Below, piece after piece: positions 19,619-50,810 of a stretch of DNA of 64,000 nucleotides. Below the pieces are notes generated by a model. It was not told where the DNA came from. It saw only the letters and a program-made list of their open reading frames with translations, and made no database searches. Location of the stretch: NCBI RefSeq assembly GCF_009931435.1, contig NZ_CP043414.1; one strand, written 5' to 3'. Numbering within the stretch: the first letter of the stretch is position 1; every line of letters begins with the position of its first letter. This DNA is from Escherichia coli. Its GTDB lineage: Bacteria > Pseudomonadota > Gammaproteobacteria > Enterobacterales > Enterobacteriaceae. The translations under genes were made by a program, and so were the position numbers.

Positions 19619-20053
19619 ATGAGTAAGAAGAAAATTCCTTTTGAAAATGAAGAGTTCATTACTTACCGGGCATTACTTCTGAGTATTGACTTTGTTAAAA
19701 AACTGGTTATAGAAATGTCTGATGAAGATTTAAATAAGGTTAAGGAAAACTTTGACATAGCTATTCAGCAACGTAATGAGCGAAAGGAAAATATGAAAGC
19801 TATCAAATCACTCATGGATGAACATGGTATATCTCTGGAAGATTTTTATTGTGAATTTGGCAAAAAATCACAGGCAGGCAGAAAAAGTGTGTCAGGAAGG
19901 CATAAATACGAGTATGACGATAACGGTAAAAGAATGTACTGGAATGGACAAGGACGTCGGCCTAAGGCCATAGCAGAGGCTATAAAAGCCGGAGGTTCTC
20001 TTGATGATTTTCTTATATCTCAGGAAGTATCATCTGGTCCTGATTATGAATAA
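19619..20053 (+). CDS. H-NS-family nucleoid-associated protein (island-borne paralogue)
   Basis: 144 aa. Coiled-coil N-terminus. The C-terminal YWNGQGRRPKAIAEAIKAGGSLDDFLI corresponds to H-NS [28 protein letters not shown]. Confidence 0.85.
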   Translation: MSKKKIPFENEEFITYRALLLSIDFVKKLVIEMSDEDLNKVKENFDIAIQQRNERKENMKAIKSLMDEHGISLEDFYCEFGKKSQAGRKSVSGRHKYEYDDNGKRMYWNGQGRRPKAIAEAIKAGGSLDDFLISQEVSSGPDYE

Positions 20054-20469: not shown

Positions 20470-21042
20470 CTACATATAGATAAATTCATATTTCACGATA
20501 TACGACCCAATTTTATTAACACGAGCTGTTACCCATACACCTGTCATCCCCTGTTTATGGTGACTGCGCGGGAACTCTTTATTTGTACAAAGTTGTATCC
20601 ATCTGGAAGTGTTTTGATCTTTCAACCAGAGTCCCGCTTCACAATGTCCATACTTTCCTCTTGATGGTCCCGGAAAAACAACATCATATTCAGATTCATA
20701 GCTAATAACCTTATCCGGAAAAAGATAAACACAGACATCGTAACAGTTCAGACTCAGTATAAATCCAAGACAAAATCCCCCCGTGAATGCATTTAATAAA
20801 TACTTTAATGTTCTGTTAAAGGTGCGGATATAAAATGCATAAATAAAAGAAAGAGAACCGGTGGTTATACCGGTGCAAAAATATGTTGTCCATTCAGGTA
20901 CCGTATTTTGTAAAACAGTATAATGAGATATGGCGGATGCCCACAACATATACCAGCACAAACCACCTGCAATAAGATATGTTATTGCTGTGGAAAACCA
21001 TTTCCTGTATTTATTTTCAGGGTGATTGTTTTTGCCCATCAA
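20470..21042 (-). CDS. hypothetical membrane protein (about 3 TM helices plus a C-terminal soluble domain)
   Basis: 190-aa ORF starting 97 bp downstream of the dGTPase-family gene on the same strand. Hydrophobic segments at about aa 17-37, 52-72 and 84-104. No family recognised. Confidence 0.5.
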   Translation of the reverse strand: MMGKNNHPENKYRKWFSTAITYLIAGGLCWYMLWASAISHYTVLQNTVPEWTTYFCTGITTGSLSFIYAFYIRTFNRTLKYLLNAFTGGFCLGFILSLNCYDVCVYLFPDKVISYESEYDVVFPGPSRGKYGHCEAGLWLKDQNTSRWIQLCTNKEFPRSHHKQGMTGVWVTARVNKIGSYIVKYEFIYM

Positions 21043-21139
21043 CGCATTTCCAGAATATTTAAAAATAACCTGTCACCGAAACAGAATAAAGGCGCAATAA
21101 CCATAGCGGGAAAATATGCGCCTCTGGTAATCGACAGTG

Positions 21140-22393
21140 TTACTTCAGACAGTGAGTTTCCCATTCCTTGACTGCAAATGTATCCATCATACCTGAAATA
21201 TAGTCAACCACTGCTCGTTTTTTGCTGATTTTAAATATATAGGAATCTGGTTGGGGTAAGGTGAATTTAAGTTCAGGAGGCAGAAATTTATAATTCTCTC
21301 CTTCATTGTAAAAGTCATATAAATCCCTGATTATTTTATTTCCCCTGAACTCATAGGTGAGGATATTACGTTTTCGCATGATGACTTTAAAGAGAAGTTT
21401 TTTGAGCCCTTCGGATAACGCATTCAGTTTCCCGAATCCCAGTTCCTGAAAACCATTCAGGTTCGTTACTACAGAAATATCTGCAACGAGGCGATTGACA
21501 ATATTTGAAGTTAACTCCTTGCGGAATATGATGGCAAATTCTTCTGAGGTTTTCAGTAAGTTAGCCTGAAAAGCGGTGTTTCTCGACTGAGTAACGATTT
21601 CCCTGAACTGTTCCCTCGCTCCCCGGAATTCGTCAGAAATCTGAAACTCATATTCAATATCTTCAATCGTGACCATGTTCCTGCTAAGGGCATCTTCCAG
21701 GTCATGCGCGGCATAGGCAATCTCATCCGCGAGATCCATTATCTGCGCATCAATCGTTTTCTCTCCGGGATTCAGATCGAGCTGATTTTCAGCAAGCAGG
21801 TTAATGTAAAAATAGTAATCATCATCATAAATGAACTTGCCGGCAGTAGCTGCAGCGCGGGGGATGGGATACTTAACAACCGAAAGTAAACTACGGTGAG
21901 TCAGATTTAATCCGTTGCAGTATGAAAATTTCTTCTCCAGTTTTCTCAGGATACGTAGCGCCTGTGCATTGCCTTCATAGCCGCCGATTTCTTCAGACAG
22001 TTCATTAAGTAGTTTTTCACCGGAATGACCGAAAGGAGGATTTCCGATGTCATGCGCCAGAGCTGCCAGTTCAACCACCACCGGGTTAACCAGTTTGAGG
22101 TCTGACGCGATACTTCGGGCGATCTGAGCAACCTCAAGACTGTGCGTTAATCTGTTTCTGTTGAATTTTTCAGGATCAATTTCAAAAAGTTGCATCTTTC
22201 CCTGCAGCCTGCGAAATGATGATGAATACAGAATACGCGCATAATCCCGTTGATAATTATCCCGGCTTCTTGTTTCACCATCGGGGGACGGGTGCTCTCT
22301 GGTATCAGCAAGCGCACTGATAAGTTTTTGTTCCTGCTCTTGCGCAAATTCTTTTAATTCATTGCAGTACATATTTCTTCCTTTCTGGAGCAT
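21140..22393 (-). CDS. dGTPase-family HD-domain dNTP triphosphohydrolase (Dgt-like, short form)
   Basis: 417 aa. YQRDYARILYSSSFRRLQGKMQLF...NRLTHSLEVAQIARSIA...LAALAHDIGNPPFGHSGE is the dGTP triphosphohydrolase family signature (H..HD metal site). Confidence 0.9.
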   Translation of the reverse strand: MLQKGRNMYCNELKEFAQEQEQKLISALADTREHPSPDGETRSRDNYQRDYARILYSSSFRRLQGKMQLFEIDPEKFNRNRLTHSLEVAQIARSIASDLKLVNPVVVELAALAHDIGNPPFGHSGEKLLNELSEEIGGYEGNAQALRILRKLEKKFSYCNGLNLTHRSLLSVVKYPIPRAAATAGKFIYDDDYYFYINLLAENQLDLNPGEKTIDAQIMDLADEIAYAAHDLEDALSRNMVTIEDIEYEFQISDEFRGAREQFREIVTQSRNTAFQANLLKTSEEFAIIFRKELTSNIVNRLVADISVVTNLNGFQELGFGKLNALSEGLKKLLFKVIMRKRNILTYEFRGNKIIRDLYDFYNEGENYKFLPPELKFTLPQPDSYIFKISKKRAVVDYISGMMDTFAVKEWETHCLK

Positions 22394-22522
22394 GTTACCA
22401 AATCAGAATACCGGATGAACAAAACTGGTGGCTACATCCTGTAGGGATTATGTATTAGTAAGCTCTGGCCATTAGTGCCATTTCAGGTTATGTGATCCTA
22501 CTCACGTAATATGGACACAGGC

Positions 22523-23389
22523 CTAAGTGAGGTTCTGGTTTTCAAATTGTTCCGGACTGAGGCCGCCACACCAACTGTGCCGCCGCCACCGATTGTAATC
22601 ACATTCGATATAATTAAACACCGTTGCCCGCATTATTTCCCGGCTGATAAAGTGTTCTCCATGGATACATTCCACTTTCAGCGAATGAAAGAAGCTTTCC
22701 ACGCAGGCATTATCGTAGCAGCAACCTTTTGCGCTCATACTTCCACGCAGATTATGCCGCTTCAGTTGCGCCTGATAATCTGCTGAACAGTACTGGCCTC
22801 CACGGTCCGTGTGAACGATAACGTTCCGGGGCCTCTTACGCCGCCACAGCGCCATCTGCAGGGCATCGCAGGCCAGTTGCGCCGTCATGCGTGGCGACAT
22901 TGACCAGCCAATAACGGCACGTGACCACAGGTCAATGACCACTGCCAGATACAGCCAGCCTTCATCTGTACGTAAGTACGTGATGTCTCCTGCCCACTTC
23001 TGGTTCGGGCCACTGGCGTAAAAATCCTGCTCCAACAGATTTTCTGACACAGGCAGGCCGTGTGCGCGGTAGCTGACCGGGCTGAACTTCCGGGAGGCCT
23101 TTGCCCTCAGTCCCTGACGGAGCAGGCTTGCCGCCACGGTTTTTACGTTAAAGGGGTAACCCTGAGCACGCAGTTCATCCGTCAGGCGTGGGGCACCGTA
23201 ACGCTGTTTTGACCGGGTAAAAGCCGCGAGGACAACGCTGTCGCAGTGTTGGCGGAACTGCTGACGCGTGCTTATCCTTGTCCGCCGCTGACACCACGTA
23301 TACCAGCCGCTGCGGGCCACCCGGAGCACGCGGCACATTGCTTTGATGCTGAACTCAGCCTGATGTTTTTCAATAAAGACATACTTCAT
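22523..23389 (-). CDS. insF: IS3 transposase OrfB (InsF), DDE domain
   Basis: 288 aa, [32 protein letters not shown]..., near-identical to IS3 InsF as recalled. Confidence 0.95.
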
Positions 23390-23684
23390 TTCAGACGATT
23401 CGCAAAGTATGTCGCGGCCTTTTGGAGGATAGCCAGTTCCTCTGCCTGCTCCGCCAGTTGCCGCTTCAGGCGGGCATTTTCAGCGGCCAGTTCACTTTCA
23501 CGATCTGACGAACTCATTTGTTGCTGCAGTTTGCTGCGCCACGCATAGAGCTGTGATTCATACAGGCTGAGTTCACGGGCTGCGGCAGCAACACCGATGC
23601 GTTCAGCAAGTTTCAGGGCTTCACTGAGAAATTCAGGCGAATGCTGTTTACGGGGTTTTTACTGGTTGATACTGTTTTTGTCAT
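23386..23684 (-). pseudogene. insE: IS3 orfA (insE) with a 1-nt deletion in an A-run
   Basis: ATG at 23684 reads MTKTVSTSKNPVNSIRLNFSVKP then stop. Shifting one base after AGTAAAAA restores KPRKQHSPEF...[15 protein letters not shown] ending at 23386. The span is 299 nt, not a multiple of 3. The ORF track shows no 60-aa or longer minus-strand ORF here. Confidence 0.8.
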
Positions 23685-23851
23685 GTGAGTCACCTCTGAC
23701 TGAGAGTTTACTCACTTAGCCGCGTGTCCACTATTGCTGGGTAAGATCAAGTCTTACTTACCCTGTGAACCATGTTGATATTGATACTATATTGACTATA
23801 TGCCATACAGGTGGTAATGATTAGTTACTACCATACAGGAAAAGGTAGAAA

Positions 23852-24832
23852 ATGACTCTTTTGGTAACGGCTGAGTGTGTTGACGATCTGATAAACGATG
23901 TTCATCAAGCTATCCTAGCGGATGGACTCAGTAACGATCCTACAAAAGGATCAACTCTAGAGATTCTTGGTGCCTATCTTGTCCTTACCGACCCCCGCCG
24001 AAGAATAAGTAGAACAGAATCCCGAGGAAAACTAATTAGTTGCTTAGGTGAATTTCTGTGGTATCTCTCAGCTCAGAACGATCTTGAGTTTATAAAACAC
24101 TTCATACCACGTTACGCTGAATCCGCTGAGTCAGATGGGAAAATACATGGTGGTTACGGGCCACGGTTGTTTAATATGCGTGGTTTATATAATCAGCTAA
24201 AAAATGTCATCAACCTTTTGCAGGAGAAAAAACCTACCAGACGTGCAGTAATACAGCTTTTCGATGCCTCAGACTTGGTGCCCTCAAAAACTGAACAGCG
24301 AGAATACGTAGATATTCCTTGTACAATATCTATGCAGTTTATTGTCAGATGTGAAGAGCTGCATCTATTTGTTTGTATGCGTTCTAACGATGCCTTTATG
24401 GGGCTGCCTCATGATGTATTTGCGTTCACGATGCTACAGGAATTAGTTGCCCGCTTGATAGGATGCGAATTGGGTCACTATCATCACTTTGTATCCAGCC
24501 TACATCTCTATAAAAATGATTTAGAAAAAGTGAAGGCTCTTCAGAAAGAGGGGTTCATGAGCACCCTACCAGTCATGGGATCGATGCCTGAAATGCATTC
24601 CTTAGATGATATCTTACCCCTGCTTGAGGCAGAAAAAGCTCTTCGAGAGAATAAGGAATTTGATATTGACACTACTTCCTTGAATGACTACTGGAAGGAT
24701 TTATTGCGTATATTAAAAATCCACTTTTTGTTACGTTCACATACACCCAACCACAAAGGACTAGCCTTCCAAGAGTTGGCTGCAATGAAAAATCAGGAAT
24801 ATCGGTTTATTTTTGAAGGAAGACTACAATGA
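23852..24832 (+). CDS. thymidylate-synthase-fold pyrimidine-C5 transferase homologue (Asp at the ThyA Asn177 position)
   Basis: 326 aa. Ungapped match to the ThyA core as recalled: IPCTISMQF/APCHAFFQF, MRSNDAFMGLPHDVFAF/QRSCDVFLGLPFNIASY, LHLYKN/THLYSN, GEFLWYL/HELLWFL. Confidence 0.8.
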   Translation: MTLLVTAECVDDLINDVHQAILADGLSNDPTKGSTLEILGAYLVLTDPRRRISRTESRGKLISCLGEFLWYLSAQNDLEFIKHFIPRYAESAESDGKIHGGYGPRLFNMRGLYNQLKNVINLLQEKKPTRRAVIQLFDASDLVPSKTEQREYVDIPCTISMQFIVRCEELHLFVCMRSNDAFMGLPHDVFAFTMLQELVARLIGCELGHYHHFVSSLHLYKNDLEKVKALQKEGFMSTLPVMGSMPEMHSLDDILPLLEAEKALRENKEFDIDTTSLNDYWKDLLRILKIHFLLRSHTPNHKGLAFQELAAMKNQEYRFIFEGRLQ

Positions 24833-25773
24833 AAAGACATAATCAAATCAGTCAGCTGGTTAGTAATTTGCAAAATTTTAGCCGCAATGAACACAACCTA
24901 AATGGTCTAAGTTCTCCTGCCTGCTTTGATGTTTTAGCCTGTCAGATTATCGACAGTATACGTCGTATACGCTATGTGGAAACTCTTGCATTACGGACCG
25001 ATTATATGACTCCGTTACGAAAAGAGCCGAATTCTGATGTTTTTGATCCTCTCCGCGCTGCCTGCCTTTATCTTCGTGACAACAATTACGATGAAGCCTG
25101 CTGGCTGGTTTTCCTTGCCACACATTTCGGCAAGAGTAACAAAACCGGCTGGATTTTGTGTCGAGATATATACAGTGGACTCGGTACACAAACGTGGACA
25201 TGGGATACGATAACTGATGACTTTGCTGCTTTTGAACAATGGTTCGCCAGCGTCTCTGATGAGTTGACAGCTAACAGTAGCCTAAGACAATATGGTAACC
25301 ATCGGAAATATGAAACGAAGAAATATCACTCTCGTCGTTCAATACCTGCGGTTTTTCGCTCTTACATCGGATTCATTGGTGCTACACACAGTCATGAGGC
25401 TAGGTTTGCAGAGGCCAAGAGCTTTTCATCTTCACCAGAATCTTTATTCGAACTATTGTATTCAGGGCTAAATGCCGTGATCTCATTTGGACGAACCGCA
25501 AAATTTGATTACCTAACTATGCTCAAGAAAACGGGACTTCTGGATGTAGAGCCGGGTCATGCTTTTCTGAATGGAGCAACCGGGCCCCTTCAAGGAAGCC
25601 GGCTACTTTTCAGCAATAGCCGGACTGCTGGTGACACAATAGACGTATTGAATGAAAAACTAGCTGACCTTGCGGCAATTATTCCTGCACCCTACTTGAG
25701 AATGCAGGTTATTGAAGATGCGTTGTGCAACTGGCAGAAATCACCTGACCGTTATGTCTATTTCGGCGGCTGA
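24829..25773 (+). CDS. hypothetical protein translationally coupled to the TS-fold gene
   Basis: 314-aa ORF whose ATG overlaps the upstream stop (ATGA at 24829-24832). No motif assignable by eye. Confidence 0.6.
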   Translation: MKRHNQISQLVSNLQNFSRNEHNLNGLSSPACFDVLACQIIDSIRRIRYVETLALRTDYMTPLRKEPNSDVFDPLRAACLYLRDNNYDEACWLVFLATHFGKSNKTGWILCRDIYSGLGTQTWTWDTITDDFAAFEQWFASVSDELTANSSLRQYGNHRKYETKKYHSRRSIPAVFRSYIGFIGATHSHEARFAEAKSFSSSPESLFELLYSGLNAVISFGRTAKFDYLTMLKKTGLLDVEPGHAFLNGATGPLQGSRLLFSNSRTAGDTIDVLNEKLADLAAIIPAPYLRMQVIEDALCNWQKSPDRYVYFGG

Positions 25774-25775
25774 TA

Positions 25776-26858
25776 TCAGACGATATCTTCTTTACGGAAT
25801 CTCACTTTAAACCGATTAAGGTGAGAAAAAGGTATATTACCTTCATGCTGCAAATATCCCAGTACGATCCCTTTGGATACCCCCATTTTCCTAGCTAACC
25901 GGATGATCTCTTTCCAATGCCGGACACCATAGCGACTAAGTTGCTGCCGGTATTCTTCTGGGATAAGAACATCAACGGCAAATTTATCTGCTTCCTTTTC
26001 CTCTTCCGACGAAAGACTATCTTTACCTTCTACGCGAACTCGGACAGCTTCATGCAAGATGAGATGCCCAATCTCATGAAACAGCGTAAACCAAAAATGG
26101 TCATCGGTCAGATAACGGAAACTCATGACTAGGGTTGCGCGATCTGGTGTAAAAAAGCAGGTAGCACCACTTGCCCGACATCCCTTTGGCGTTGGCAACA
26201 CAACGAGAGAAACTCCAGCAGTGGCGAGAAGGTCGCGAATGTAAGGGATAAAAATCCTCATGTCGGGTTCATTTGTAGCTTTGCGCAGTTCTGGCAACAA
26301 TGCTATCAGCACCTCTTTATCCCATACAGCACAGTTTTGGTTTGAGGTAAGTTGTGCAGCCCTAGTCAGCCACACCAAATCGGCCATAGGCTCGGTTGCC
26401 AGATTAAGAGATTTACGAAAAGCGACCAAAGGAGCATCTGACTGAATTTTATAAAAAAAATCATTGACGGAATTTATTCCGAAAAACGATAGGCAGTGCT
26501 GGAATTTACTTTCCCGAGTTGTAGTTTTGGGGATCCAACCAAACTCCATCATATCACGTACAGGCAATGATTCGAGCCAATCATTATTCACTTTCTCGAG
26601 GTATCCAATTTGCTGGCGATAAGCGACTTCGCGCTTGATCCAGAAGTCTGTCGATACGTTGAATAACTCCTCAAGCTTACAAGCCAGAGACTCATTGAGT
26701 CGGATTTTTCCTTCAAGAAGTTGCTGACCCCGGATAAGAGACAATCCAATCCTCTTACTCAGTTCTTCACCAGAAAGCCCATGTTCATCCATTAGATCTA
26801 TAATTGTATCACCGGGTGGAGATACCCAGTCAGGCTGGAAGTCCTGCGTAACTATCAT
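25776..26858 (-). CDS. XRE-type HTH fused to an ImmA/IrrE-family zinc metallopeptidase
   Basis: 360 aa. N-terminal HTH (LSGEELSKRIGLSLIRGQQLLEG) and C-terminal HExxH (LFHEIGHLILHE). Confidence 0.8.
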   Translation of the reverse strand: MIVTQDFQPDWVSPPGDTIIDLMDEHGLSGEELSKRIGLSLIRGQQLLEGKIRLNESLACKLEELFNVSTDFWIKREVAYRQQIGYLEKVNNDWLESLPVRDMMEFGWIPKTTTRESKFQHCLSFFGINSVNDFFYKIQSDAPLVAFRKSLNLATEPMADLVWLTRAAQLTSNQNCAVWDKEVLIALLPELRKATNEPDMRIFIPYIRDLLATAGVSLVVLPTPKGCRASGATCFFTPDRATLVMSFRYLTDDHFWFTLFHEIGHLILHEAVRVRVEGKDSLSSEEEKEADKFAVDVLIPEEYRQQLSRYGVRHWKEIIRLARKMGVSKGIVLGYLQHEGNIPFSHLNRFKVRFRKEDIV

Positions 26859-27181
26859 TTCACGTCACCTATGAACACTAACCGTATCCGGCTAACTCGG
26901 GACCAGTTAATTGTATTATCTTGATTTTTGGGCTGAACTGTATTCCCACAGACAAATCCCATTTTTACATCACCGAGAATGGTAATTGTAATACACTCTT
27001 CCCCATCCTCAAAGCAGACCTCCGGCGAACCTACGGGCAACAGTAAAATGTTGTCTGTCACGGAAAGATCGGAAAGTCGCGAGCGTAGTCTTGATGCCAC
27101 TTTGTCACCAAAGATCTCATTTGCCTCATGCATACTCTCGCAAATAGTCCTTAACTTCTTGCTTTGAAAGGTAATGAACAA
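26855..27181 (-). CDS. small putative toxin (HigB/killer-protein-like N-terminus) upstream of the HTH-ImmA gene
   Basis: 108-aa ORF overlapping the downstream gene by 4 bp. MFITFQSKKLRTICES resembles the start of HigB-type killer proteins, but the C-terminal family motif is not evident. Confidence 0.4.
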   Translation of the reverse strand: MFITFQSKKLRTICESMHEANEIFGDKVASRLRSRLSDLSVTDNILLLPVGSPEVCFEDGEECITITILGDVKMGFVCGNTVQPKNQDNTINWSRVSRIRLVFIGDVK

Positions 27182-27324
27182 AATTATCCACTTTTATTTT
27201 TCTTGGTTGCTACGTTTATAGCAAACTCAACGCTCATTCACAAAATGAGATGTAGCGAATTAATGGACTCTGCACATATTAAATGTTAATGATGGACTTA
27301 AAATCACGGATTCGTAAGGGAAAC

Positions 27325-27588
27325 ATGAAAGGTAAACATCAAGACACTAAAGCCCTGTCTGACGTGCTAGCGGAAATGCAACGGCAGGATGCCAAATGGG
27401 GGGCAGACCGTAATCAAGATCCTTTTATCTGGGGAGCGATTCTCGGAGAAGAGGTGGGAGAATTTCATCAGGCTGTCCTCCATGATCGTTTTGGTGGTAA
27501 AGCAGCCGGTACCAGTAGGGAGGAAGCAGTACAAATTGCTGCTGTTGCACTGCAAATCATCGAATATTATGATCGCGTAATAGATTGA
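27325..27588 (+). CDS. MazG-like all-alpha NTP pyrophosphohydrolase (small form)
   Basis: ATG at 27325 preceded by AAGGGA. KWG....W..ILGEEVGEFHQAV...EEAVQIAAVALQIIEY fits the MazG-type EExxE metal motif and helical pattern. Confidence 0.6.
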   Translation: MKGKHQDTKALSDVLAEMQRQDAKWGADRNQDPFIWGAILGEEVGEFHQAVLHDRFGGKAAGTSREEAVQIAAVALQIIEYYDRVID

Positions 27589-28710: not shown

Positions 28711-29012
28711 GATTAATGCATTGAAACAAAATTCATTAATGATGAACTTGGAGAAAAGCTCCATCGTTTTATTGGCTCAAAAAACATATCCCATAGATGA
28801 TCAGCCATACCTTCATTGGTTAGCAAGGTATCCTGTGAGTAGCCATGGCTGAAGATGCCCATTGATGGGCGAAAACCAAGGATCTGACCGTTAGAGCAGT
28901 TATGTCGTTAAACACATCACCACCATATGCCATCCGGCTCACTTCGTCGGCCAAATTAGTGTGATATTCTTTCCAGAAATGCTGTTGTATCCACGACATA
29001 AGGCGATGATTG

Positions 29013-32000
29013 ATGGAGCAGTCTCTCAATTTTGAAATGTTGCGCAGCCAGTGGCCGGAACTGGCTGAACTCGCGTGTATGGCGGAACGCTATGTTCACT
29101 CCGATCCGGAAAGTTGTCTGGTCAAGCTGCGCAACTACACTGAATTGATGGTGCGCTGGTTGTATCGTCAGGAGCGGTTGCCGGAAGGTATTAAGGCTAA
29201 TCTTTACGATTTAATGAATGCTGATGTCTTTACCAGCATGATGCCGGAAGCCATCATCATGAAAATGGATGCGCTGCGTATCCATGGCAACCGTGCCGCG
29301 CACGGCGGACGTATCAAAGCTAAAGATACTTACTGGCTGCTCAAAGAAGCGTATTTGTTGGGAATTTGGCTGTATGTTCGCTACGCCCACGGTAATGTTG
29401 ATGACTGCCCCAAATTTACACTCCCTCCATTAACACAATCTTCAGGTCGTGCAGATGAAAAACGTCTGGAAGATGCAATCAGGGCTCAGGATGAAAGCCG
29501 TGAGCGCGAACTGGCGCTGCAACGCGCACTACAGCAAGAACAGGAAAAGGCCGAACACCTCACTCAACGCCTGAATGAAGCCAGAGCGCGTAACCAGCAT
29601 GTTGCCGATATTCTCTCTATTGATGAAGCGGAAACCCGCCGTCGCCTGATTGACTCTCGCCTGCTTGCTGCTGACTGGAATGTAGGCGAAGGCCTTAAAA
29701 ATACCGATCAGGTTACGCAGGAACATCCCGTTAAAGAACAACCTACCGCGACCGGAGACGGTTATGCGGACTATGTCTTGTGGGATGAGGCACACAAACC
29801 GCTGGCGGTGGTGGAAGCAAAAAAAACCAGCGTCAATGCCGAGCAAGGACGAATTCAGGCCCGGCTGTATGCAGACTGGCTGGAAAAAGAATACGGCCAG
29901 CGTCCGATCATCTTCTACACCAACGGCTATGATATCTGGCTGTGGGATGACCATAAAACTCATGGTTATCCCCCGCGTCGGGTGTTTGGCTTCTACAGCA
30001 AGGAAAGCCTGCAATATCTTATTCAACAGCGTGAAACCCGTCTTCCGCTGAACAGTGTGCCGTACGTAAAAGATAACGAAGGTAAGGCCGTTGCCGGACG
30101 TTTGTACCAGCTTGAAACCATTGCCCGTGTCAGCGAGCGGTTTACCAACAAATACCGGCAATCGCTAATTGTTCAGGCTACGGGTACAGGCAAAACCCGC
30201 GTGGCAATAGCGCTAAGCAAACTGATGATTGATGCCCGCTGGGTAAAACGCGTCCTGTTTCTTTGCGACCGCAAGGAACTACGTAAACAGGCGGCGAATG
30301 CCTTTAATCAATTCACCAATGAGCCGCTGTATGTGGTCGGGAAATCGAAAAAAGCAGACAGGCAGAATGCTAGGATCTACATCGCCACCTATCCTGGTAT
30401 GATGAAAATCATGGACCATTTCGATGTTGGTTATTTCGATTTGATCATCGCCGATGAATCCCATCGCTCTATCTACAACGTTTACGGCGATCTGTTTAAG
30501 TATTTTGATGCCCTCCAGATTGGCCTGACGGCCACGCCGATTGACATGGTGAGTAAAACCACTTTCGGCCTGTTTGGTTGTGAAGGACGTATTCCTACCG
30601 CCAACTACAGCCTGGAAGATGCCATCGCCGATAACAATCTGGTTCCCTATGAGGTTGTCACGCACACCACAGAATTCCTGCGCGAAGGCATCAAACGGGA
30701 GAAATTAAGCGACGCACAAATCCGCGAGCTGGAAGAACAAGGCATAGATCCCAATACGCTGGAGTTTGATGGCAAGGCGCTGGATGAGGCGATCTACAAC
30801 AAAGACACCAACCGCTATATCCTGCGTAACCTGATGGAAAATGGCCTGAAAGATCGGGACGGCCAGTTGCCAGGTAAAACCATCATTTTCGCCCGTAACC
30901 ACAAACACGCGCTGCTGTTGAATGAATTATTCGACGATATGTACCCGCAGTTTGCCGGGCGCTTCTGCCAGGTCATCGACAATTACGATCCCCGCGCCGA
31001 GCAACTGATTGATGATTTTAAAGGGCTGGATGAAAGCACCAACAAAGAGCTGACCATCGCTATCTCCGTTGACATGCTCGATACCGGTATTGATGTCCCG
31101 GAAATTGTGAATCTGGTCTTTGCCAAACCGGTCAAATCAAAAGTGAAGTTCTGGCAGATGATTGGCCGTGGTACGCGCCTCTGTCCGGGGTTGTACGGTT
31201 ACGACGATAACGGCAAACCTCTGGATAAACAGAAATTCCGCATTTTCGATCACTGGGGCAATTTTGAGTATCACGAACTGCATACCGAAGAGGCCGAAGT
31301 CACAGCGACAAAATCGCTTGCACAAAAACGCTTCGAAGCGTGGGTTATGCTGGGGGCCGCTGCGCAACGTAAATTCGACAAACAGGCGGTGGATTTAGTT
31401 GCTCACCAGCTACGCGAGCAAATCAATGCACTGGATGAAAAGTCGATTGCCGTCCAGGAAAAGTGGCATCAAAAAGCGCAGTACAGCGATGAAAAAGTGC
31501 TGCGCCAGCTTTCCCCGAAAACACAGCAGGATTTGCTATCTGTCCTGGCCCCGCTGATGCAGTGGCTGGACGTGCGCGGGCAAAGCGACGCTATGCGCTT
31601 TGATATGGATATTCTGGCGGCGCAAACTGCCCGTTATACCAACCCGGAAGAGCTGGATGTGCTCTGGCCGGTCATCGTCGAAAAAGTGGAGCGCCTGCCG
31701 CCGCATTTGGCGCAAGTCCAACAGCAAGGACCGCGGATCAATCAGCTTCGTGATTTAGGCTGGTGGAAGCAGGCCAGCCTGGAAGAGCTGGAAGATATCC
31801 GCATTCATCTGCGCGGCATCATGCACCTGATGGAAAAAGACGCGACGCCGAAATTTGGTTCGATACAGGTGGATATTACCGAAGATGCGAACCTGATTCA
31901 GACGGAAAACCGCAAAACCAACATCCGCTCGATTGACTTCAAACTCTATCGCCAGCAGGTGCAGGGAGCGCTGGAGCCGCTGTTCCAGCAAAATCCGGTG

Positions 32001-32426
32001 CTGAAGAAAATCCGCAACGGCGAGCCTGTGACGCAAAGCGAGCTGGATGAACTGGCTAAACTGGTGCTGATCCAGAACCCTAACGTTGATATCCGGGCAC
32101 TGAAAGAGTTCTACCCGCAGGCGACCGCCAGCCTGGATAAACTATTGCGTACCATCATCGGGATGGACAGCGACGCGGTGGAAGTGCGCTTTGCTCAGTT
32201 CGCCGCTGATAACAGCCTGACCAGCCAGCAATTGCGCTTCCTGTCATTGCTGAAAAACCACATTCGCGATTACGGCACCATTGAAATGCGGCAGCTCTTT
32301 GAACAGCCTTTTACGCATATCCACAACGAAGGCGTTACCGGTGTGTTCCCTGATATAGAGCAGATCGCCCGCCTACAAAAGATAGTCGAAGAGCTGGGTG
32401 TTGTGACCGACGCAGCAACGGTATAA
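29013..32426 (+). CDS. hsdR: type I restriction enzyme R subunit (HsdR) with a DUF4145-like N-terminal domain
   Basis: ATG at 29013 (the ORF track starts at TTG 29010). PD-(D/E)xK GYADYVLWDE...VVEAKK. SF2 helicase motifs QATGTGKT and DESH. EcoEI-type C-terminal domain. Confidence 0.9.
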   Translation: MEQSLNFEMLRSQWPELAELACMAERYVHSDPESCLVKLRNYTELMVRWLYRQERLPEGIKANLYDLMNADVFTSMMPEAIIMKMDALRIHGNRAAHGGRIKAKDTYWLLKEAYLLGIWLYVRYAHGNVDDCPKFTLPPLTQSSGRADEKRLEDAIRAQDESRERELALQRALQQEQEKAEHLTQRLNEARARNQHVADILSIDEAETRRRLIDSRLLAADWNVGEGLKNTDQVTQEHPVKEQPTATGDGYADYVLWDEAHKPLAVVEAKKTSVNAEQGRIQARLYADWLEKEYGQRPIIFYTNGYDIWLWDDHKTHGYPPRRVFGFYSKESLQYLIQQRETRLPLNSVPYVKDNEGKAVAGRLYQLETIARVSERFTNKYRQSLIVQATGTGKTRVAIALSKLMIDARWVKRVLFLCDRKELRKQAANAFNQFTNEPLYVVGKSKKADRQNARIYIATYPGMMKIMDHFDVGYFDLIIADESHRSIYNVYGDLFKYFDALQIGLTATPIDMVSKTTFGLFGCEGRIPTANYSLEDAIADNNLVPYEVVTHTTEFLREGIKREKLSDAQIRELEEQGIDPNTLEFDGKALDEAIYNKDTNRYILRNLMENGLKDRDGQLPGKTIIFARNHKHALLLNELFDDMYPQFAGRFCQVIDNYDPRAEQLIDDFKGLDESTNKELTIAISVDMLDTGIDVPEIVNLVFAKPVKSKVKFWQMIGRGTRLCPGLYGYDDNGKPLDKQKFRIFDHWGNFEYHELHTEEAEVTATKSLAQKRFEAWVMLGAAAQRKFDKQAVDLVAHQLREQINALDEKSIAVQEKWHQKAQYSDEKVLRQLSPKTQQDLLSVLAPLMQWLDVRGQSDAMRFDMDILAAQTARYTNPEELDVLWPVIVEKVERLPPHLAQVQQQGPRINQLRDLGWWKQASLEELEDIRIHLRGIMHLMEKDATPKFGSIQVDITEDANLIQTENRKTNIRSIDFKLYRQQVQGALEPLFQQNPVLKKIRNGEPVTQSELDELAKLVLIQNPNVDIRALKEFYPQATASLDKLLRTIIGMDSDAVEVRFAQFAADNSLTSQQLRFLSLLKNHIRDYGTIEMRQLFEQPFTHIHNEGVTGVFPDIEQIARLQKIVEELGVVTDAATV

Positions 32427-32438
32427 TACGCACATGAC

Positions 32439-32465
32439 AAGCCCCGGCAGCGGGGCTTTTGTATT
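32439..32465 (+). terminator. rho-independent terminator after hsdR
   Basis: aaGCCCCGgcagCGGGGCtttt: GC-rich 6-8 bp stem, 4-nt loop and a T-run, 13 bp after the hsdR stop. Confidence 0.7.
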
Positions 32466-32489
32466 TAAAACAGGATATAAAAGCTAACA

Positions 32490-34124
32490 ATGATCACTGG
32501 TGACTTAAAAAGTAAAATCGACGGCCTGTGGGAAGATTTCTGGGTGGGTGGTATCACCAACCCGCTGACCGTAATCGAACAGATCACCTATCTAATGTAT
32601 TCCCGGATGCTGGATACTCAGGAACAACGCGACGAGAAGCGTAAACAAATCGCGGGTATTGATTTTAAACCGCGTTTTGCACCAGAACAGCAGGAGTTCC
32701 GTTTCAGTCACTATAGCAATCTTGGCTCGGATGAGATGATGGAAGTGGTGCGCGATGGTGTATTCCAGCATTTTCGTCAGCTCGGCCAGGCTGATGCGTC
32801 GAAGGTAACGCTGCTGGGCAACTTTATGAAAGATGCCCGTCTGGAGATTGTTAAGCCTTCATTGCTGACCAAAGCGGTTGAGGTGATCAAAAACCTGCCA
32901 TTGGATCGCGGCGACACCAAAGGCGACCTTTACGAATACCTGTTAAGCAAGCTGACCACTGCCGGAATCAACGGCCAGTTTCGCACACCGCGCCACATTA
33001 TCCGCACGATGGTTGAAATGATGGAGCCGAACCCCGCCCGCGGCGAGACGATTTGCGATCCGGCCTGCGGCACCGGTGGCTTTCTGGCAACCAGCTATGA
33101 ATATCTACTGGAGAAGTACAGCTCGCTGGAATCCATTCATACCGAGATTGGCACCAACGAACGTGGTGAGCTGGAAGAGCAAAAAATCTTTACCGGCGAT
33201 CTGTTGACCCCGTGGCGTAACCATGTGGATAACAATATGTTCCACGGTTACGACTTTGACACCACAATGTTACGTATCGCCGCCATGAACCTGATTATGC
33301 ACGGCGTGGAAGCGCCGGATATCCACTATCAGGACACCATGAGCCAGAGCTTCAGCACAAACTTCCCGCAGGCCAGTAAAAACGCTTTCAACCTGATTCT
33401 GGCAAACCCGCCGTTTACCGGTTCACTGGACGAAGAAGATATCGACTCCACGCTGTCGGCAATGGTGAAAACCAAAAAAACCGAACTACTGTTCCTGGCG
33501 CGTATTCTGCAAATGCTGAAAGTGGGCGGGCGCAGTGCCACTATCGTGCCGCAGGGCGTGCTGTTTGGCTCCAGTAAGGCGCACCAGTCACTTCGCAAAA
33601 CGCTGGTGGAAGATAACCAACTGGAAGCGGTGATCAACCTGCCTTCCGGCGTATTTAAACCTTACGCTGGCGTGGCGACGGCGATCCTGATCTTTACCAA
33701 AGGCGGTCAGACGGACGAGGTCTGGTTCTACGATCTGCAAAATGATGGCTACAGCCTGGATGACAAGCGTAACCCAATTAAAGACAACGACCTGCCGCAT
33801 CTGCTGGCAAGCTGGAAGCATTACCGTACTTTACGCGGGCTGCCGGTTGATAACTTTATGGGTGAGAAATTAGCCTCGTTGCTTAAACAGCAGCACCCGG
33901 AAGGGATTGATGTTGGCGTTGATTTTAAAGATCGCACGCAGGCGGCGTTTGTAGTTCCAAAAGAAGATATTGCTGCGCAGAAATACGATCTCTCTATTAA
34001 TCGTTATAACGAAGTGGTGTATCAGGCGGAGGAGTATGAAGATCCGAAGGTGATACTGAAACGATTAAAAGATCTGGAAAAAGAGATTCTGGCGGATCTG
34101 GATGAGCTGGAGGGGATGCTGTGA
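32490..34124 (+). CDS. hsdM: type I R-M N6-adenine DNA methyltransferase (HsdM)
   Basis: 544 aa. AdoMet motif DPACGTGGF and catalytic NPPF ([10 protein letters not shown]). Confidence 0.9.
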
Positions 34125-35287
34125 GTTGTCGTTATTTAAAAATTGAGGATTTTTGTAGCACCGGTAGCGGTGGAACACCCAGTAGGTCAAAGCCTGAGTA
34201 TTATGAGGGGGGAGATATCCCTTGGATTAAATCAGGAGACCTTAAAGATTCAAAAATTTATGAAGCAAATGAGTACATTACAGCCGCAGGGCTAGAAAAT
34301 AGCAGCGCGAAAATAGTTGAGAAAGACTCAATCTTAATAGCAATGTATGGAGCCACTGTTGGTCGCTTAGCAATTTTAGGAATTAATGCAGCCACGAATC
34401 AAGCTATTTGCAATATCAGGCCAGATACGACAATTGCTGATATGAAGTATCTCTATTACTTCTTGAAGAGCAAGTTCAGCTATTTTGTCGAAAATGCGGT
34501 TGGTGGGGCTCAACCTAATATTAGCCAAGGATTGATTAAGTCATTAGAAGTTCCCCTACCTTCTTTAGATGAACAAAAGCGTATCGCAGATATTCTTGAT
34601 AAAGCTGCTGGTGTATGCCAAAAACGCGAGCAAGCTATCAAACTGGCTGATGATTTTTTGCGGGCTAAGTTTCTAGAGATGTTTGGAACTCCTGCAAACA
34701 ACATACATCGTTTCCCGAAAGGAACGATTCGCGACTTGGTTGATTCAGTAAATTATGGAACTTCAGCAAAAGCCTCTATTGATTCTGGTGAATATCCTAT
34801 ATTACGGATGGGTAATATAACATATCAAGGTAGGTGGGATTTTACAGATTTAAAATATATTGATCTCAGTGTAAAAGAAAAGGATAAATATTTGGTTAAA
34901 GAAGGCGATCTTCTTTTCAATCGTACTAACAGTAAGGAACTTGTTGGTAAAACAGCTGTGTATGAAGAAGACAGGCCTATGGCATTTGCTGGATATTTAA
35001 TCCGCGTTAGACCTAATTCTATCGGAAATAACTACTATATTTCAGGGTATCTTAATTCCATCCATGGCAAAATCACATTGATGAATATGTGTAAAAGTAT
35101 TGTTGGCATGGCTAATATTAATGCACAGGAATTGCAGAATATAGAGATATTAATCCCACCTAAGCATCTACAAGATGAGTATGAGATTATTTATAAAAAA
35201 ATAAAAAAAGGACTAAGCATTTATGATAAAAGCGCAATGCAACTTCAACTTTTAGCATCAAACCTATCGAATAAATATTTCATGTAA
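34121..35287 (+). CDS. hsdS: type I R-M specificity subunit (HsdS), two target-recognition domains
   Basis: 388 aa. GTG start overlapping the hsdM stop (GTGA). Conserved central and C-terminal helices (LPSLDEQKRIADILD..., IPPKHLQDEY). Much more AT-rich than hsdR and hsdM. Confidence 0.85.
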   Translation: MSCRYLKIEDFCSTGSGGTPSRSKPEYYEGGDIPWIKSGDLKDSKIYEANEYITAAGLENSSAKIVEKDSILIAMYGATVGRLAILGINAATNQAICNIRPDTTIADMKYLYYFLKSKFSYFVENAVGGAQPNISQGLIKSLEVPLPSLDEQKRIADILDKAAGVCQKREQAIKLADDFLRAKFLEMFGTPANNIHRFPKGTIRDLVDSVNYGTSAKASIDSGEYPILRMGNITYQGRWDFTDLKYIDLSVKEKDKYLVKEGDLLFNRTNSKELVGKTAVYEEDRPMAFAGYLIRVRPNSIGNNYYISGYLNSIHGKITLMNMCKSIVGMANINAQELQNIEILIPPKHLQDEYEIIYKKIKKGLSIYDKSAMQLQLLASNLSNKYFM

Positions 35288-35295
35288 GGTTCATT

Positions 35296-36918
35296 ATGAA
35301 ATTAACTAAACTTGTACTTGAAAATTTCAGATCTGTTAGAGAGCGGCAGGAAATTGATTTTGCACCTGTAACATTACTATTGGGGCCAAACAGCGCGGGC
35401 AAGACTACTATTTTAATTGCATTATTTTATCTTCAACAAATATTAGACCGTGAGCAGTGTGATCCTATATATTTAGAAGCTATGGGGAACAGGCGCATAG
35501 ATGGATTTAGATCTCTAGTCCATAATGGGGATCTGAATAATGTAATTACTATTGGTATCGGTTTCGATCCTGAACAAACAATAGGTGTAGAATATAAAAC
35601 ATATTTAGAAGAACTTGGTGATATTTTCGATATTCATTTTATAAAAATGAAAGACATTGCAGATGAAACTGAAAAGGTTTATGTAGAATTTAAAATCGCA
35701 TGGTCACAATTGCACAGAGCAGCATATATAAAGAACTATGCTGTTTCTATAAATAATGAATTTATTGGAGAGCTAAGTAATGATGAGTATACTAAATCAT
35801 CTTTAGTAAATAGATTGAACTTTACTCATCCGTTGCTTCTTCCTATTGATTATAATTTATGGCTTGAATCTATTGATAAGGAAGGATTAGATACGATTGC
35901 CAGTGAATTTGAAATATCTTTAAATGACTTAATTCCTGGCTTAGAACGTAATAAAAGTGGTGCAACAGAGCGAGTAAAAACTGTTGATTATATATTTGAA
36001 GAAGATAAAGAAAAACCAATGTTTCCTGTTTTTTTAAAGACGAAAATTGGTGCGTTACCTCAACTGGGAAGAACTGTTGATACAAATTTGAAAGTTTTTG
36101 ATATATCCGAGCCAGTTGAGTATTTTAATCGAGATATAATCACCAGAGTGCTAACGCAAGTTTTTACTTCTCCGTTAGATAAATTAAATAATTATTTAAA
36201 GGCTAGCGTATCTATTGGACCGTTAAGAATTATACCTGATTCTTCATTTACGCCAAATCCTTATCCAGAACAAAATGGATGGTTTGATGGTACATCAGCA
36301 TGGGATAAGCTGTGTTTATCTCAACAAAATGATAGTGATTTGATTAAAAAAGTAAGTGATTGGTTTTCCAATAGAGATAAACTAAACACTAATTATAATA
36401 TATTTAGTGGAGGAGAATTTGATATAAAAACCTCCCCTCAACTTTTAGGTCTGAAAGATAATGTTTACTTCTGTAAAATAGATTCAAGCCAAATGTTATT
36501 TCCAAATCAAGTCGGTGTCGGATTAACTCAGATAGCACCTCTTATTATTGCAGCCAATATAGTTCAGGATGGATTAATTGCTATAGAGCAGCCTGAGCTA
36601 CATATTCATCCCGCTTTACAACTCGCTGTAGGTGATCTGTTTACCCAATATCCCCTTGATGTTAAAAGACCTATGTTTTTAGTCGAAACACATAGTGAGC
36701 ACATTTTGCTTCGAATTTTAAAAAGAATTAGACAAACAACGGACAATGAATTACCTGAATCAAATTACCCAGTAAAACCTGATTTTATATCAGTGATCGT
36801 TTTCGAGGATAATAATGGTTCGACTGTTACTAGGAAAATAGATATTACTGATGATGGTGACTTCAAACAAAAATGGCCCAAAGGTTTCTTCGAAGAAAGA
36901 AGGGGAGAGCTTTTTTAA
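35296..36918 (+). CDS. ABC/AAA_15-21-type ATPase (OLD/PtuA/AriA-like nucleotide-binding architecture)
   Basis: 540 aa, starting 8 bp after hsdS. Walker A GPNSAGKTT, Walker B/D-loop IAIEQPELHIHP, H-loop ETHSEHIL, with a long insertion between the Walker motifs. C-terminal KWPKGFFEERRGELF. Confidence 0.75.
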   Translation: MKLTKLVLENFRSVRERQEIDFAPVTLLLGPNSAGKTTILIALFYLQQILDREQCDPIYLEAMGNRRIDGFRSLVHNGDLNNVITIGIGFDPEQTIGVEYKTYLEELGDIFDIHFIKMKDIADETEKVYVEFKIAWSQLHRAAYIKNYAVSINNEFIGELSNDEYTKSSLVNRLNFTHPLLLPIDYNLWLESIDKEGLDTIASEFEISLNDLIPGLERNKSGATERVKTVDYIFEEDKEKPMFPVFLKTKIGALPQLGRTVDTNLKVFDISEPVEYFNRDIITRVLTQVFTSPLDKLNNYLKASVSIGPLRIIPDSSFTPNPYPEQNGWFDGTSAWDKLCLSQQNDSDLIKKVSDWFSNRDKLNTNYNIFSGGEFDIKTSPQLLGLKDNVYFCKIDSSQMLFPNQVGVGLTQIAPLIIAANIVQDGLIAIEQPELHIHPALQLAVGDLFTQYPLDVKRPMFLVETHSEHILLRILKRIRQTTDNELPESNYPVKPDFISVIVFEDNNGSTVTRKIDITDDGDFKQKWPKGFFEERRGELF

Positions 36919-37814
36919 TGTTCTACGAATGCGCCATTTCACCAGAGGCTTTGTTTGAGATCGCAATTGATCGGAGAAATTATCGTGACTTCATAAAAGG
37001 ATTTTCTACGGGCGGTAACTTTCTCTATAGTGAATTACCAAAGCTGAAGAGAAATAAAAAACAATTGCTTGGGCTATTAAATGCTAATCATAGTGAACTT
37101 CAAAAAAAACGATTAGAGGACCTTATTATTTTTTTGAAAAATAATAAGGTTAGTAGGGTTTATGATTATGTTGGTGACATGTCATGGTCAGATAACATCT
37201 CTGCTGTAAATCGAATTGAACAATTTGATCATGTAGTGAGTTCTACTCCTTGTGATAACCTTGATGTAACTAATATAGATGATTTCTTTGGGTTAAATTA
37301 TGCTCGGCAAAAAATTGTTGCTAGAATTGCTGAGGATATGATATCTATAATCTCACGCTTATTAAAAACATCAGAGCATATTATTATAGTTGACCCATAC
37401 TTTAGTGACAAACAAAGATGGTGGAATGTATTTATTTCATTACTTAGCGTTAGTGCTAATAACTCTTATAAAAAAAATTTAAAGATAGATGTTATATTTG
37501 ATGGGAGTAAAGAAAACTCCCCAACGGTGAATTATTTGGCTAATAAGTTGAACCGCGAAAACCTTGTCTTTCCAGACGATTTTAAATTATCAGTAACATT
37601 TAAGTCTTTAACTTCTCGCGAGGGTAATGAACGTCTGCATAATAGATATGTTCTTTCTAATGTTGCTGGAGTTTGTTTCATGCATGGTTTAGATGAGGGA
37701 GAAGGAACGGATGATGTCTCAATTTTGTCGAAAGAGGGATATAATAAAAGATGGGAACATTACACTACGAATAATGTTTTTGATTTAATAGAAGAGCGTG
37801 AAGTTATATGTTAA
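36918..37814 (+). CDS. hypothetical partner of the ATPase (possible PLD-fold-like C-terminal module)
   Basis: ATG at 36918 overlaps the ATPase stop (TAATG). 298 aa. C-terminal pattern IIIVDPYF ... LHNRYVLSN..G..FMHGLDEG. No Toprim, HNH or HEPN motif seen. Confidence 0.55.
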   Translation: MFYECAISPEALFEIAIDRRNYRDFIKGFSTGGNFLYSELPKLKRNKKQLLGLLNANHSELQKKRLEDLIIFLKNNKVSRVYDYVGDMSWSDNISAVNRIEQFDHVVSSTPCDNLDVTNIDDFFGLNYARQKIVARIAEDMISIISRLLKTSEHIIIVDPYFSDKQRWWNVFISLLSVSANNSYKKNLKIDVIFDGSKENSPTVNYLANKLNRENLVFPDDFKLSVTFKSLTSREGNERLHNRYVLSNVAGVCFMHGLDEGEGTDDVSILSKEGYNKRWEHYTTNNVFDLIEEREVIC

Positions 37815-44682: not shown

Positions 44683-45401
<719 letters not shown>

Positions 45402-48407: not shown

Positions 48408-48440
48408 CGTGAGTTTTCGTTCCACTGAGCGTCAGACCCC

Positions 48441-49064: not shown

Positions 49065-50810
<1,746 letters not shown>

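Follow-up and report, generated by a model that had tools for sequence, protein, structure and literature searches.

What brings a dGTPase-family hydrolase, an enzyme of the thymidylate synthase (TS) fold and a small MazG-like protein together within 7 kb of accessory DNA? The three are encoded between positions 20470 and 27588 of a 64,000-nucleotide stretch of Escherichia coli DNA (contig NZ_CP043414.1; hereafter, the window). Two explanations had been offered in an original prediction made from the sequence: a hotspot of defences aimed at the nucleotide pool, or pieces of a single modification pathway that insertions had split, namely an IS3 element and a toxin-antitoxin-like pair. All three open reading frames were recovered, with their families assigned by Pfam, PADLOC and TIGR01353 and, for the MazG-like protein, by its RefSeq name. 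Comparison with other genomes showed that the 7-kb stretch is two unrelated units joined by IS3: a stand-alone dGTPase and a mobile cassette of four to five genes. The cassette unites the TS-like gene with a second enzyme gene and with the supposed toxin-antitoxin pair.

A mobile cassette of two convergent gene pairs

The core of the cassette consists of four genes. The TS-like gene (23852-24832, plus strand) is followed on the same strand by a gene for a 314-residue enzyme (24829-25773), hereafter aGPT3. It is a clade-3 member of the alpha-glutamyl/putrescinyl-thymine pyrophosphorylases (aGPT-Pplases), resembling amino-acid:DNA transferases (AADTs) of the HhH fold. Facing these two, on the minus strand, are a 360-residue fusion of an Xre-type HTH domain to an M78 (ImmA/IrrE) metallopeptidase (Xre-M78; 25776-26858; Pfam HTH_3 and Peptidase_M78) and a 108-residue protein, p108 (26855-27181), whose gene overlaps the Xre-M78 start. 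The aGPT3 gene overlaps the TS-like gene by 4 bases, the two being translationally coupled, and its stop codon lies 2 bases from that of the convergent Xre-M78 gene.

To follow the cassette, we scanned one genome per species for aGPT3 relatives, which gave 327 stretches, and analysed the best 79 loci, locating Xre-M78 and TS-like genes by tblastn and p108 by clustering. A viral set of 24 relatives, drawn from 2.9 million IMG/VR viral contigs, brought the total to 103 loci. With E <= 1e-5, the aGPT3 family gave 3,903 cluster representatives, almost all 310-316 residues long; the p108 family had 641. At least 327 species-level genomes, from many phyla, contain cassette relatives; the 79 loci alone cover Proteobacteria, Acidobacteriota, Planctomycetota, Verrucomicrobiota, Bacteroidota, Myxococcota, Actinomycetota, Chloroflexota and Saccharibacteria.

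Across these 79 loci, aGPT3 was accompanied by Xre-M78 in 77, by the TS-like gene in 73 and by p108 in 61, and where the TS-like or Xre-M78 gene was missing, the contig ended or the locus was rearranged. Gene order and strand do not vary: the TS-like gene precedes aGPT3, and both face Xre-M78 and p108. The median gap is -4 bp between TS-like gene and aGPT3, 2 bp between the convergent stops and -8 bp between p108 and Xre-M78. The same core order was found in all 24 IMG/VR loci, two of whose contigs end before one flanking gene. The original prediction had overlooked aGPT3, which at the 79 loci lacks its TS-like partner only at contig ends and in rearranged loci.

The cassette measures 3.3-3.8 kb. 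Aligned with Citrobacter and Enterobacter cassettes, the window shows a conserved block of 3.8 kb (23789-27580; about 79% DNA identity) that starts 63 bp upstream of the TS-like start codon and stops at the stop codon of the MazG-like gene (27325-27588, plus strand). Since homology spans this block and then ends, the mobile unit in Enterobacterales has five genes, the MazG-like gene being an accessory fifth.

Of 5,426 complete E. coli genomes, 231 contain at least 80% of the cassette. A 79.5%-identical version that includes the MazG-like gene occupies a tRNA-Leu island of E. coli ET450, beside an integrase and another type I restriction-modification (R-M) system. Flanking contexts beyond the cassette, read from annotation for a few loci, vary from locus to locus and include integrases (of P4 type at some loci), R-M genes, pilus genes and flagellin genes. 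One copy (L094) belongs to a lambdoid-type prophage, where DnaT/YdaT genes flank it on one side and DUF968/lysozyme genes on the other. The cassette is self-contained and horizontally mobile: two convergent, translationally coupled gene pairs, with a fifth gene in Enterobacterales. For the TS-like gene, these synteny data contradict both explanations originally offered. The toxin-antitoxin-like pair, which had been taken for interleaved foreign material, is p108 and Xre-M78, an integral convergent half of the cassette.

The dGTPase is an independent neighbour across an IS3 junction

The dGTPase gene (21140-22393, minus strand; RefSeq start at 22372, giving 410 residues) encodes an HD-domain dGTP triphosphohydrolase, as judged by Pfam (HD, 1.2e-14; HD_assoc, 5.4e-15), TIGR01353 (317 bits; cut-off 152) and the PADLOC dGTPase model, which matched at 1.4e-109 and covers the product almost end to end. 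With this near full-length match and its place in a defence-rich island, the protein resembles the anti-phage dGTPases that defend by nucleotide depletion. It differs from them in scoring below the cut-off of the NCBIfam antiphage_dGTPase model (NF041026; 284.7 bits against 400). We classify it as of the anti-phage type by PADLOC, with dGTP depletion and phage protection as predicted activities.

A dGTPase homologue was found in none of the 79 genome loci and none of the 24 IMG/VR loci of the cassette. Because the ET450 cassette and the cassette loci elsewhere have no dGTPase beside them, the adjacency characterises a single island lineage. Of the 5,426 complete E. coli genomes, 345 had some part of the dGTPase segment. 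The dGTPase is therefore an independent single-gene unit, a neighbour of the cassette and not a member of it. Only within Enterobacterales does the co-localisation originally proposed hold for the TS-like and MazG-like genes; that of the dGTPase is confined to the present E. coli island lineage.

Adjoining the dGTPase gene is a gene for a 190-residue predicted membrane protein (20470-21042, minus strand) that matches no family. Many E. coli genomes that retain the dGTPase lack the distal part of this gene (query positions 1-448), and the membrane protein may not be a dGTPase partner. An H-NS paralogue is also encoded by the island (19619-20053, plus strand), about 0.4 kb from the AT-rich dGTPase region; a 2026 preprint concerns the silencing of immunity loci by H-NS.

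Between the two units lies the IS3 element, present as predicted (22493-23749, minus strand) and bounded by 39-nt terminal inverted repeats. Its flanking triplets, ATG and AGT, do not form a matching 3-bp target duplication, which fits an IS-mediated rearrangement. In Kluyvera and Yokenella, whose cassettes are 94-95% identical to that of the window at the DNA level, homology begins at 23748, the last base of IS3, and a type I hsdRMS operon precedes the cassette instead of the dGTPase. IS3 lies outside the conserved block and leaves the promoter-like site of the TS-like gene and the whole block intact. We considered IS3 as the splitter of an operon and ruled this out: two independent units flank it and nothing conserved is interrupted.

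Traces of the junction were also seen in O157-type genomes. In NZ_CP074900.1, just the last 195 bp of the cassette remain, at 129885-130079, corresponding to the 3' end of the MazG-like gene, and further O157-type genomes resemble it in this remnant. In a similar genome, NZ_CP074967, the dGTPase lies at 127638-129817, ending about 70 bp before position 129885. The remnant and the nearby dGTPase end suggest that the cassette was lost by an IS3-associated deletion in the O157-type lineage.

All these genes stand outside their housekeeping contexts, as originally noted, because they lie within an E. coli chromosomal island on the selC (tRNA-Sec) side. Strain CAVP766 (99.9% identical) carries the same genes between setC/yicL and tRNA-Sec, among surroundings that include CbtA/YeeU, antirestriction and further island genes. 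Six proteins of the 7-kb stretch are identical to RefSeq proteins annotated in that strain.

Specificity residues point to a dCMP-specific enzyme

Which reaction might the cassette catalyse? The TS-like protein matches Pfam Thymidylat_synt (5.3e-25), and its best solved relative is MilA (5b6d), which hydroxymethylates CMP at C5 in mildiomycin biosynthesis; the match (1.6e-41) covers residues 26-304 and takes in the C-terminal extension. Ordinary thymidylate synthases match at 1e-18 or worse, and phage homologues reach about 31% identity at most. The TS superfamily's catalytic cysteine and its phosphate- and ribose-binding set of Arg, Ser, His and Tyr are all present. All 63 cassette homologues share Cys157 (the nucleophile), Glu67, Arg177, Ser178, Asp180, Asp188, His218 and Tyr220, and 62 of the 63 have Arg130.

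In MilA, BcmA and T4 CH, an Asp marks cytosine users where uracil users have Asn (PMC5175136). Asp188, at the position of ThyA Asn177, places all 63 homologues on the cytosine side. Likewise, Lys133 with Ala176 marks ribose users and Arg with Ser deoxyribose users, and the A176S/K133R exchange switches MilA to dCMP (PMC5175136). The MilA ribose pair is absent from the TS-like enzyme, which has Arg130 and Ser178 instead. Arg130, Ser178 and Asp188 together thus predict a dCMP-specific C5 enzyme, and kinship to MilA suggests that its product would be 5-hydroxymethyl-dCMP (hm-dCMP). A ribonucleotide pathway of the antibiotic-producing, MilA kind is disfavoured by Arg130 and Ser178. We accordingly replace the plain annotation of the first cassette gene as a thymidylate synthase with that of a predicted, MilA-like dCMP 5-hydroxymethylase.

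The MilA/MilB and BcmA/BcmB pairs resemble the cassette in coupling a hydroxymethylase to a second enzyme that acts on its product. They differ in that the cassette enzyme has the deoxy-type Arg and Ser and no antibiotic biosynthesis genes around it, and in that its partner has the HhH fold and is not a MilB-type N-glycosidase.

That partner, aGPT3, belongs to its family by sequence (PF18746, alpha-glutamyl/putrescinyl-thymine pyrophosphorylase, clade 3, 4.8e-90; PF18724, AADT, 9.1e-59), and a structure predicted with high confidence (pLDDT 95.7; pTM 0.93) has the HhH glycosylase-like fold. Its best structural matches in BFVD are phage AADT-domain proteins of 13-17% identity. The motif Glu296-Asp297-x-x-Cys300 is invariant in 95 sequences. 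In the phage enzyme PaMx11 gp46, the active site is Glu243-Thr244-x-x-Cys247: the flipped pyrimidine is clamped between Trp146 and Cys247, while Glu243 and Thr244 hold a metal on O4 (PMC11472151). From the matching spacing, we read the aGPT3 motif as the putative counterpart of this site.

The original prediction rightly pointed to a likeness with phage hypermodification pathways. Like the thymidine hypermodification systems of phages M6, ViI, PaMx11 and PhiW-14, which use a dUMP hydroxymethylase, the kinase 5-HMUDK and an aGPT-Pplase or AADT, the cassette combines a TS-fold C5 enzyme with an HhH-fold aGPT-Pplase/AADT bearing a gp46-like Glu-(Thr/Asp)-x-x-Cys motif. It departs from them in its cytosine determinant, Asp in place of Asn, and in having no DNA kinase, pyridoxal phosphate-dependent enzyme or second aGPT paralogue at the 103 loci. 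It also departs from them in residing in bacteria, islands and prophages and in being coupled to Xre-M78 and p108.

The MazG-like product, named 'MazG-like family protein' in RefSeq, matched nothing in Pfam, NCBIfam or PADLOC. When its family profile was compared with the Protein Data Bank (PDB), the top matches included three MazG-like pyrophosphohydrolases, each weak (E 0.3-0.6). We assign the protein the fold of a small all-alpha nucleoside triphosphate (NTP) pyrophosphohydrolase. Its motif Glu42-Glu43-x-x-Glu46 (EExxE) and Glu67 are conserved, with Gln70 at the last acidic position. The gene, always divergent from p108, was found in seven of the 79 genome loci (Kluyvera, Raoultella, Citrobacter, two Enterobacter, Pectobacterium and Yokenella), in four of the 24 viral loci and in ET450, and a more sensitive hidden Markov model search of the remaining genome loci yielded none beyond the seven.

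Homologues of about 70% identity lie in a P2-like Photorhabdus prophage, among the early genes of a lambdoid prophage of Serratia and in jumbo phages of about 355 kb (Yersinia fHe-Yen9-04, Pectobacterium CBB and Serratia BF); a 43%-identical one lies in a phage-like metagenome contig. The cassette was absent from all of these contexts, and we rejected the idea that the MazG-like gene is exclusive to the cassette. Independent occurrence elsewhere, proposed as the observation that would speak against a functional set, was thus seen for the dGTPase and in part for the MazG-like gene, which stands alone in phages; within Enterobacterales, the pairing of the latter with the TS-like gene exceeds chance.

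A putative protease-repressor switch faces the enzyme operon

The HExxH motif of the M78 peptidase is conserved in 71 of 71 Xre-M78 homologues. The best match of Xre-M78 in the defence library is PADLOC PD-Lambda-2_B (PDLC03982; 3.3e-30), identifying it as a B-type component. For p108, an hhalign comparison with a sequence taken to be Proteus vulgaris HigB gave a weak, in-register alignment of residues 1-77 (probability 35%; P 3.9e-4), so that p108 is possibly HigB-like. PD-Lambda-2_C was not matched by any of nine local proteins in PADLOC.

The validated PD-lambda-2 system (HigB-like A, Xre-peptidase B and component C; Vassallo et al. 2022) therefore offers a partial parallel. In that system, the overexpressed Xre-peptidase is toxic, the small HigB-like protein encoded upstream neutralises it, and the third gene is needed for defence (PMC9519451). 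The cassette shares the Xre-HTH/M78 fusion with a small overlapping upstream gene. It differs in that p108 has no PD-Lambda-2_A match, in that there is no C component, and in that Xre-M78 is tied instead to the TS-like/aGPT3 operon, which it accompanies at 77 of 79 loci. The pair, annotated as an unrelated toxin-antitoxin system, is better described as part of the cassette.

Candidate control sites lie upstream of the TS-like gene and between p108 and the MazG-like gene. A consensus scan identified a promoter-like site, TTGACT-18 nt-AATGAT, at 23792-23821 on the plus strand, in which ATTGACT and TAAT..A are invariant upstream of the TS-like gene in six Enterobacterales cassettes, including that of Pectobacterium. 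We take this as the putative promoter of the TS-like/aGPT3 operon, intact downstream of IS3. The divergent intergenic region between p108 and the MazG-like gene contains the palindrome TTGCTAcgtttaTAGCAA (27207-27224); its half TTATAGCAAA is invariant in six cassettes, making the palindrome a candidate operator. A conserved TAATGAT box precedes both the TS-like operon (GGTAATGAT, 23816-23822) and the MazG-like gene (GTTAATGAT, 27297-27303). This box may act as a -10 element or operator common to both, which would imply co-regulation.

Possible functions of the cassette

We lean, tentatively and aware that we may well be wrong, towards reading the cassette as an inducible and probably anti-phage system that diverts or modifies deoxycytidine under a protease-repressor switch. 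In such a system, Xre-M78 and p108 would keep the enzyme operon silent until a phage- or damage-derived signal releases it, as in ImmA/IrrE-type protease-repressor switches. The TS-like enzyme would convert dCMP to hm-dCMP and, where present, the MazG-like enzyme would feed it by converting dCTP to dCMP. The Glu-Asp-x-x-Cys site of aGPT3 would act on the 5-substituted pyrimidine; we favour an action on the base within DNA, where its phage relatives also work. As a net result, normal deoxycytidine nucleotides would be lost and aberrant cytosines would appear in replicating DNA, and phage replication would stop.

A link to defence is suggested by an independent classifier. The TS-like protein is identical to WP_000174035.1, which DefensePredictor lists as a 'predicted novel defense gene' with log-odds of 7.63 (Science 2026; PMC13092281). 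The same study validated against phage a system, DS-4, that contains a TS, a dNMP kinase, a 5-hmdU DNA kinase, TIR and NMAD, and it also highlights predicted, unvalidated systems with aGPT-Pplase, MazG and HTH domains (PMC13092281); one of these may be the cassette. DS-4 resembles the cassette as a bacterial operon of phage-type pyrimidine-modification enzymes that includes a TS homologue. This homologue is the only shared part, and a different protein in DS-4 (WP_087900468.1; 361 residues). Kinases, TIR and NMAD belong to DS-4 and not to the cassette, aGPT-Pplase and Xre-M78 to the cassette and not to DS-4, and the activity of DS-4 is validated where that of the cassette is predicted. The cassettes also lie in islands and prophages beside R-M systems and integrases.

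If defensive, the cassette would be a second example beside DS-4, mechanistically different, of phage-type pyrimidine-modification enzymes re-used for immunity. It would be aimed at cytosine and would work without the DNA kinase on which characterised aGPT-Pplases depend. This raises the question of whether a clade-3 aGPT-Pplase can act on a non-phosphorylated 5-hydroxymethyl pyrimidine. The cassette can be cloned directly.

Several points weigh against this reading. All characterised aGPT-Pplases act on a 5-hydroxymethyl group phosphorylated by a 5-HMUDK kinase (PMC8989533; PMC11472151). Neither a 5-hmdU-type DNA kinase nor a dNMP kinase was found at any of the 103 loci, where no conserved neighbour was kinase-like, and this gap weighs against a route from hm-dCMP into DNA. 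The TS-like enzyme could also methylate its substrate instead of hydroxymethylating it. E. coli is not known to phosphorylate hm-dCMP. In the MazG-like protein, Gln70 occupies what is presumably the position of the final Asp of the second MazG motif, and the genes of its homologues are typical of phages. For p108, no significant match to Pfam, NCBIfam, PADLOC, PDB or toxin families emerged, even when a 100-sequence profile was used.

Several loci, for instance in Vibrio cholerae and Salmonella, lie outside any obvious defence island, and the cassette was not seen among the operons tested with DefensePredictor, in whose supplementary list 'thymidylate synthase' appears once, for DS-4. Our search of the literature found no experimental study of the cassette, and an earlier computational description is possible, since clade 3 neighbourhoods may already be covered by Iyer et al. 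2013 and Burroughs et al. 2015.

A bolder form of the deoxycytidine-modification reading, which we consider doubtful, would have the clade-3 aGPT-Pplase and the dCMP-specific TS-fold enzyme make, without a kinase, an undescribed modified cytosine or cytosine nucleotide adduct. This would serve as a bacterial immune effector under the protease-repressor switch, with phage hypermodification chemistry turned on replicating phage DNA.

The alternative that survives best would do without any step in DNA. Here the cassette would deplete dCTP: the MazG-like enzyme would turn dCTP into dCMP, the TS-like enzyme would turn this into hm-dCMP that the host would not re-phosphorylate, and aGPT3 would destroy or derivatise that nucleotide in its free form, one option being an N-glycosidase activity such as that of MilB or QNG1. 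The kinase gap, the main weakness of all models in which the product enters DNA, keeps this dCTP sink alive. In addition, the pairing of a TS-like enzyme with a glycosylase-fold partner mirrors MilA/MilB as used in 5-hydroxymethylcytosine production (PMC4081090), and dNTP depletion is an established defence principle, to which the adjoining dGTPase conforms. We nevertheless judge such a sink unlikely, given that aGPT3 keeps the Glu-x-x-x-Cys site of its phage relatives, that no glycosylase Asp was identified in it, and that most loci have no MazG-like gene.

Somewhat further from our expectations is a role as anti-restriction cargo. An island- or prophage-borne cassette would then hypermodify its own or the host's cytosines, the ImmA-like protease switching it on when the element is induced, so that transferred DNA would be shielded from restriction. 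The phage ancestry of the enzymes and their prophage and island sites keep such self-modification alive. The characterised aGPT3 relatives all serve phage DNA hypermodification against restriction (PMC8989533; PMC11472151), and the lambdoid-type prophage copy, the P4-type integrases beside other copies and a MazG-like gene shared with phages would all suit it. However, tblastn detected no aGPT3 relative in 50,697 deposited phage genomes, and the 24 found among viral contigs are few for so large a collection. The kinase gap applies equally here, and the unrelated flanks indicate that the cassette is not tied to one kind of element. On balance, we regard anti-restriction as rather improbable.

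To the possibility that p108 and Xre-M78 form their own PD-lambda-2-like toxin-antitoxin module for defence or addiction, with the TS-like enzyme and aGPT3 as accessory or trigger-sensing parts, we give little weight. The strong PD-Lambda-2_B match and the weak HigB-like profile match of p108 would agree with it, as would the toxic peptidase, neutralising small protein and third gene of the known system. Against it stand the missing A and C matches. Moreover, the invariance across phyla of the TS-like catalytic residues and the aGPT3 motif speaks for an output of real enzymology.

Very improbable, in turn, is the originally proposed hotspot of three independent single-gene defences against the nucleotide pool. 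Part of that proposal stands: the accessory DNA is rich in defence genes, with the anti-phage-type dGTPase, a type I R-M system, an ABC-type ATPase candidate and the DefensePredictor prediction for the TS-like protein, and both the independence of the dGTPase and the solitary MazG-like homologues of phages would agree with it. The part that fails is the three enzymes as one set. The dGTPase accompanies none of the 103 cassette loci compared, the TS-like gene is missing beside aGPT3 only at contig ends and in rearranged loci among the 79, and the TS-like, aGPT3, Xre-M78, p108 and MazG-like genes form one conserved 3.8-kb block.

The other original proposal, that dGTPase, TS-like and MazG-like enzymes are one modification pathway split by IS3 and a toxin-antitoxin insertion, drew on the joint occurrence of these enzyme classes in some phage nucleotide-modification gene sets, and can practically be dismissed: in no IS-free relative does the dGTPase adjoin the cassette (none of 103 loci), IS3 with its mismatched flanking triplets lies outside an intact block, and the supposed toxin-antitoxin pair, found at 77 of 79 loci, is ancestral to the unit.

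Additional gene families and island neighbours

Only two further families recur at the 79 loci: one of about 266 residues, here called X (26 loci), and a DUF4031 protein (seven loci). X is encoded between the TS-like gene and aGPT3 (L016-L019, L027, L035 and L056, at L056:9195-9995, among others) and has the invariant motifs GLNPS, HLDL.P.AT and NHN.QSS.G. From GLNPS and NHNIQSS, we had guessed at a relative of uracil-DNA glycosylases, which found no support: X had no Pfam match and no PDB match by sequence or profile, and hhalign against E. coli Mug gave a probability of 0.3%. In the viral set, the cassette appears twice on the 118.6-kb contig IMGVR_UViG_3300025711_000239, once towards each end, and the tblastn coordinates of the two copies (L098 and L099) are identical; the duplication probably reflects a terminal repeat or else a concatemer made in assembly.

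Downstream of the cassette, the island encodes a type I R-M operon (hsdR, 29010-32426; hsdM, 32490-34124; hsdS, 34121-35287). Directly after hsdS comes a gene for a 540-residue ABC-type ATPase, for which PADLOC gave PDC-M55A, NsnB and AriA as candidates (1e-40 to 5e-22), and then one for a 313-residue protein with no Pfam or PADLOC match, the whole R-M stretch spanning 29010-37814. The ATPase and the 313-residue protein are possibly a defence pair behind the R-M system. Farther on, at 45369-64000, G+C content rises to 0.60-0.68, foreign to E. coli. This segment encodes a Tn3-family transposase, the mercuric reductase MerA, Mu/Tni-type transposition proteins and IstB, together with a sul-type dihydropteroate synthase and the aminoglycoside adenylyltransferase AadA. 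It is a Tn21/class-1-integron-like resistance region inserted into the island.

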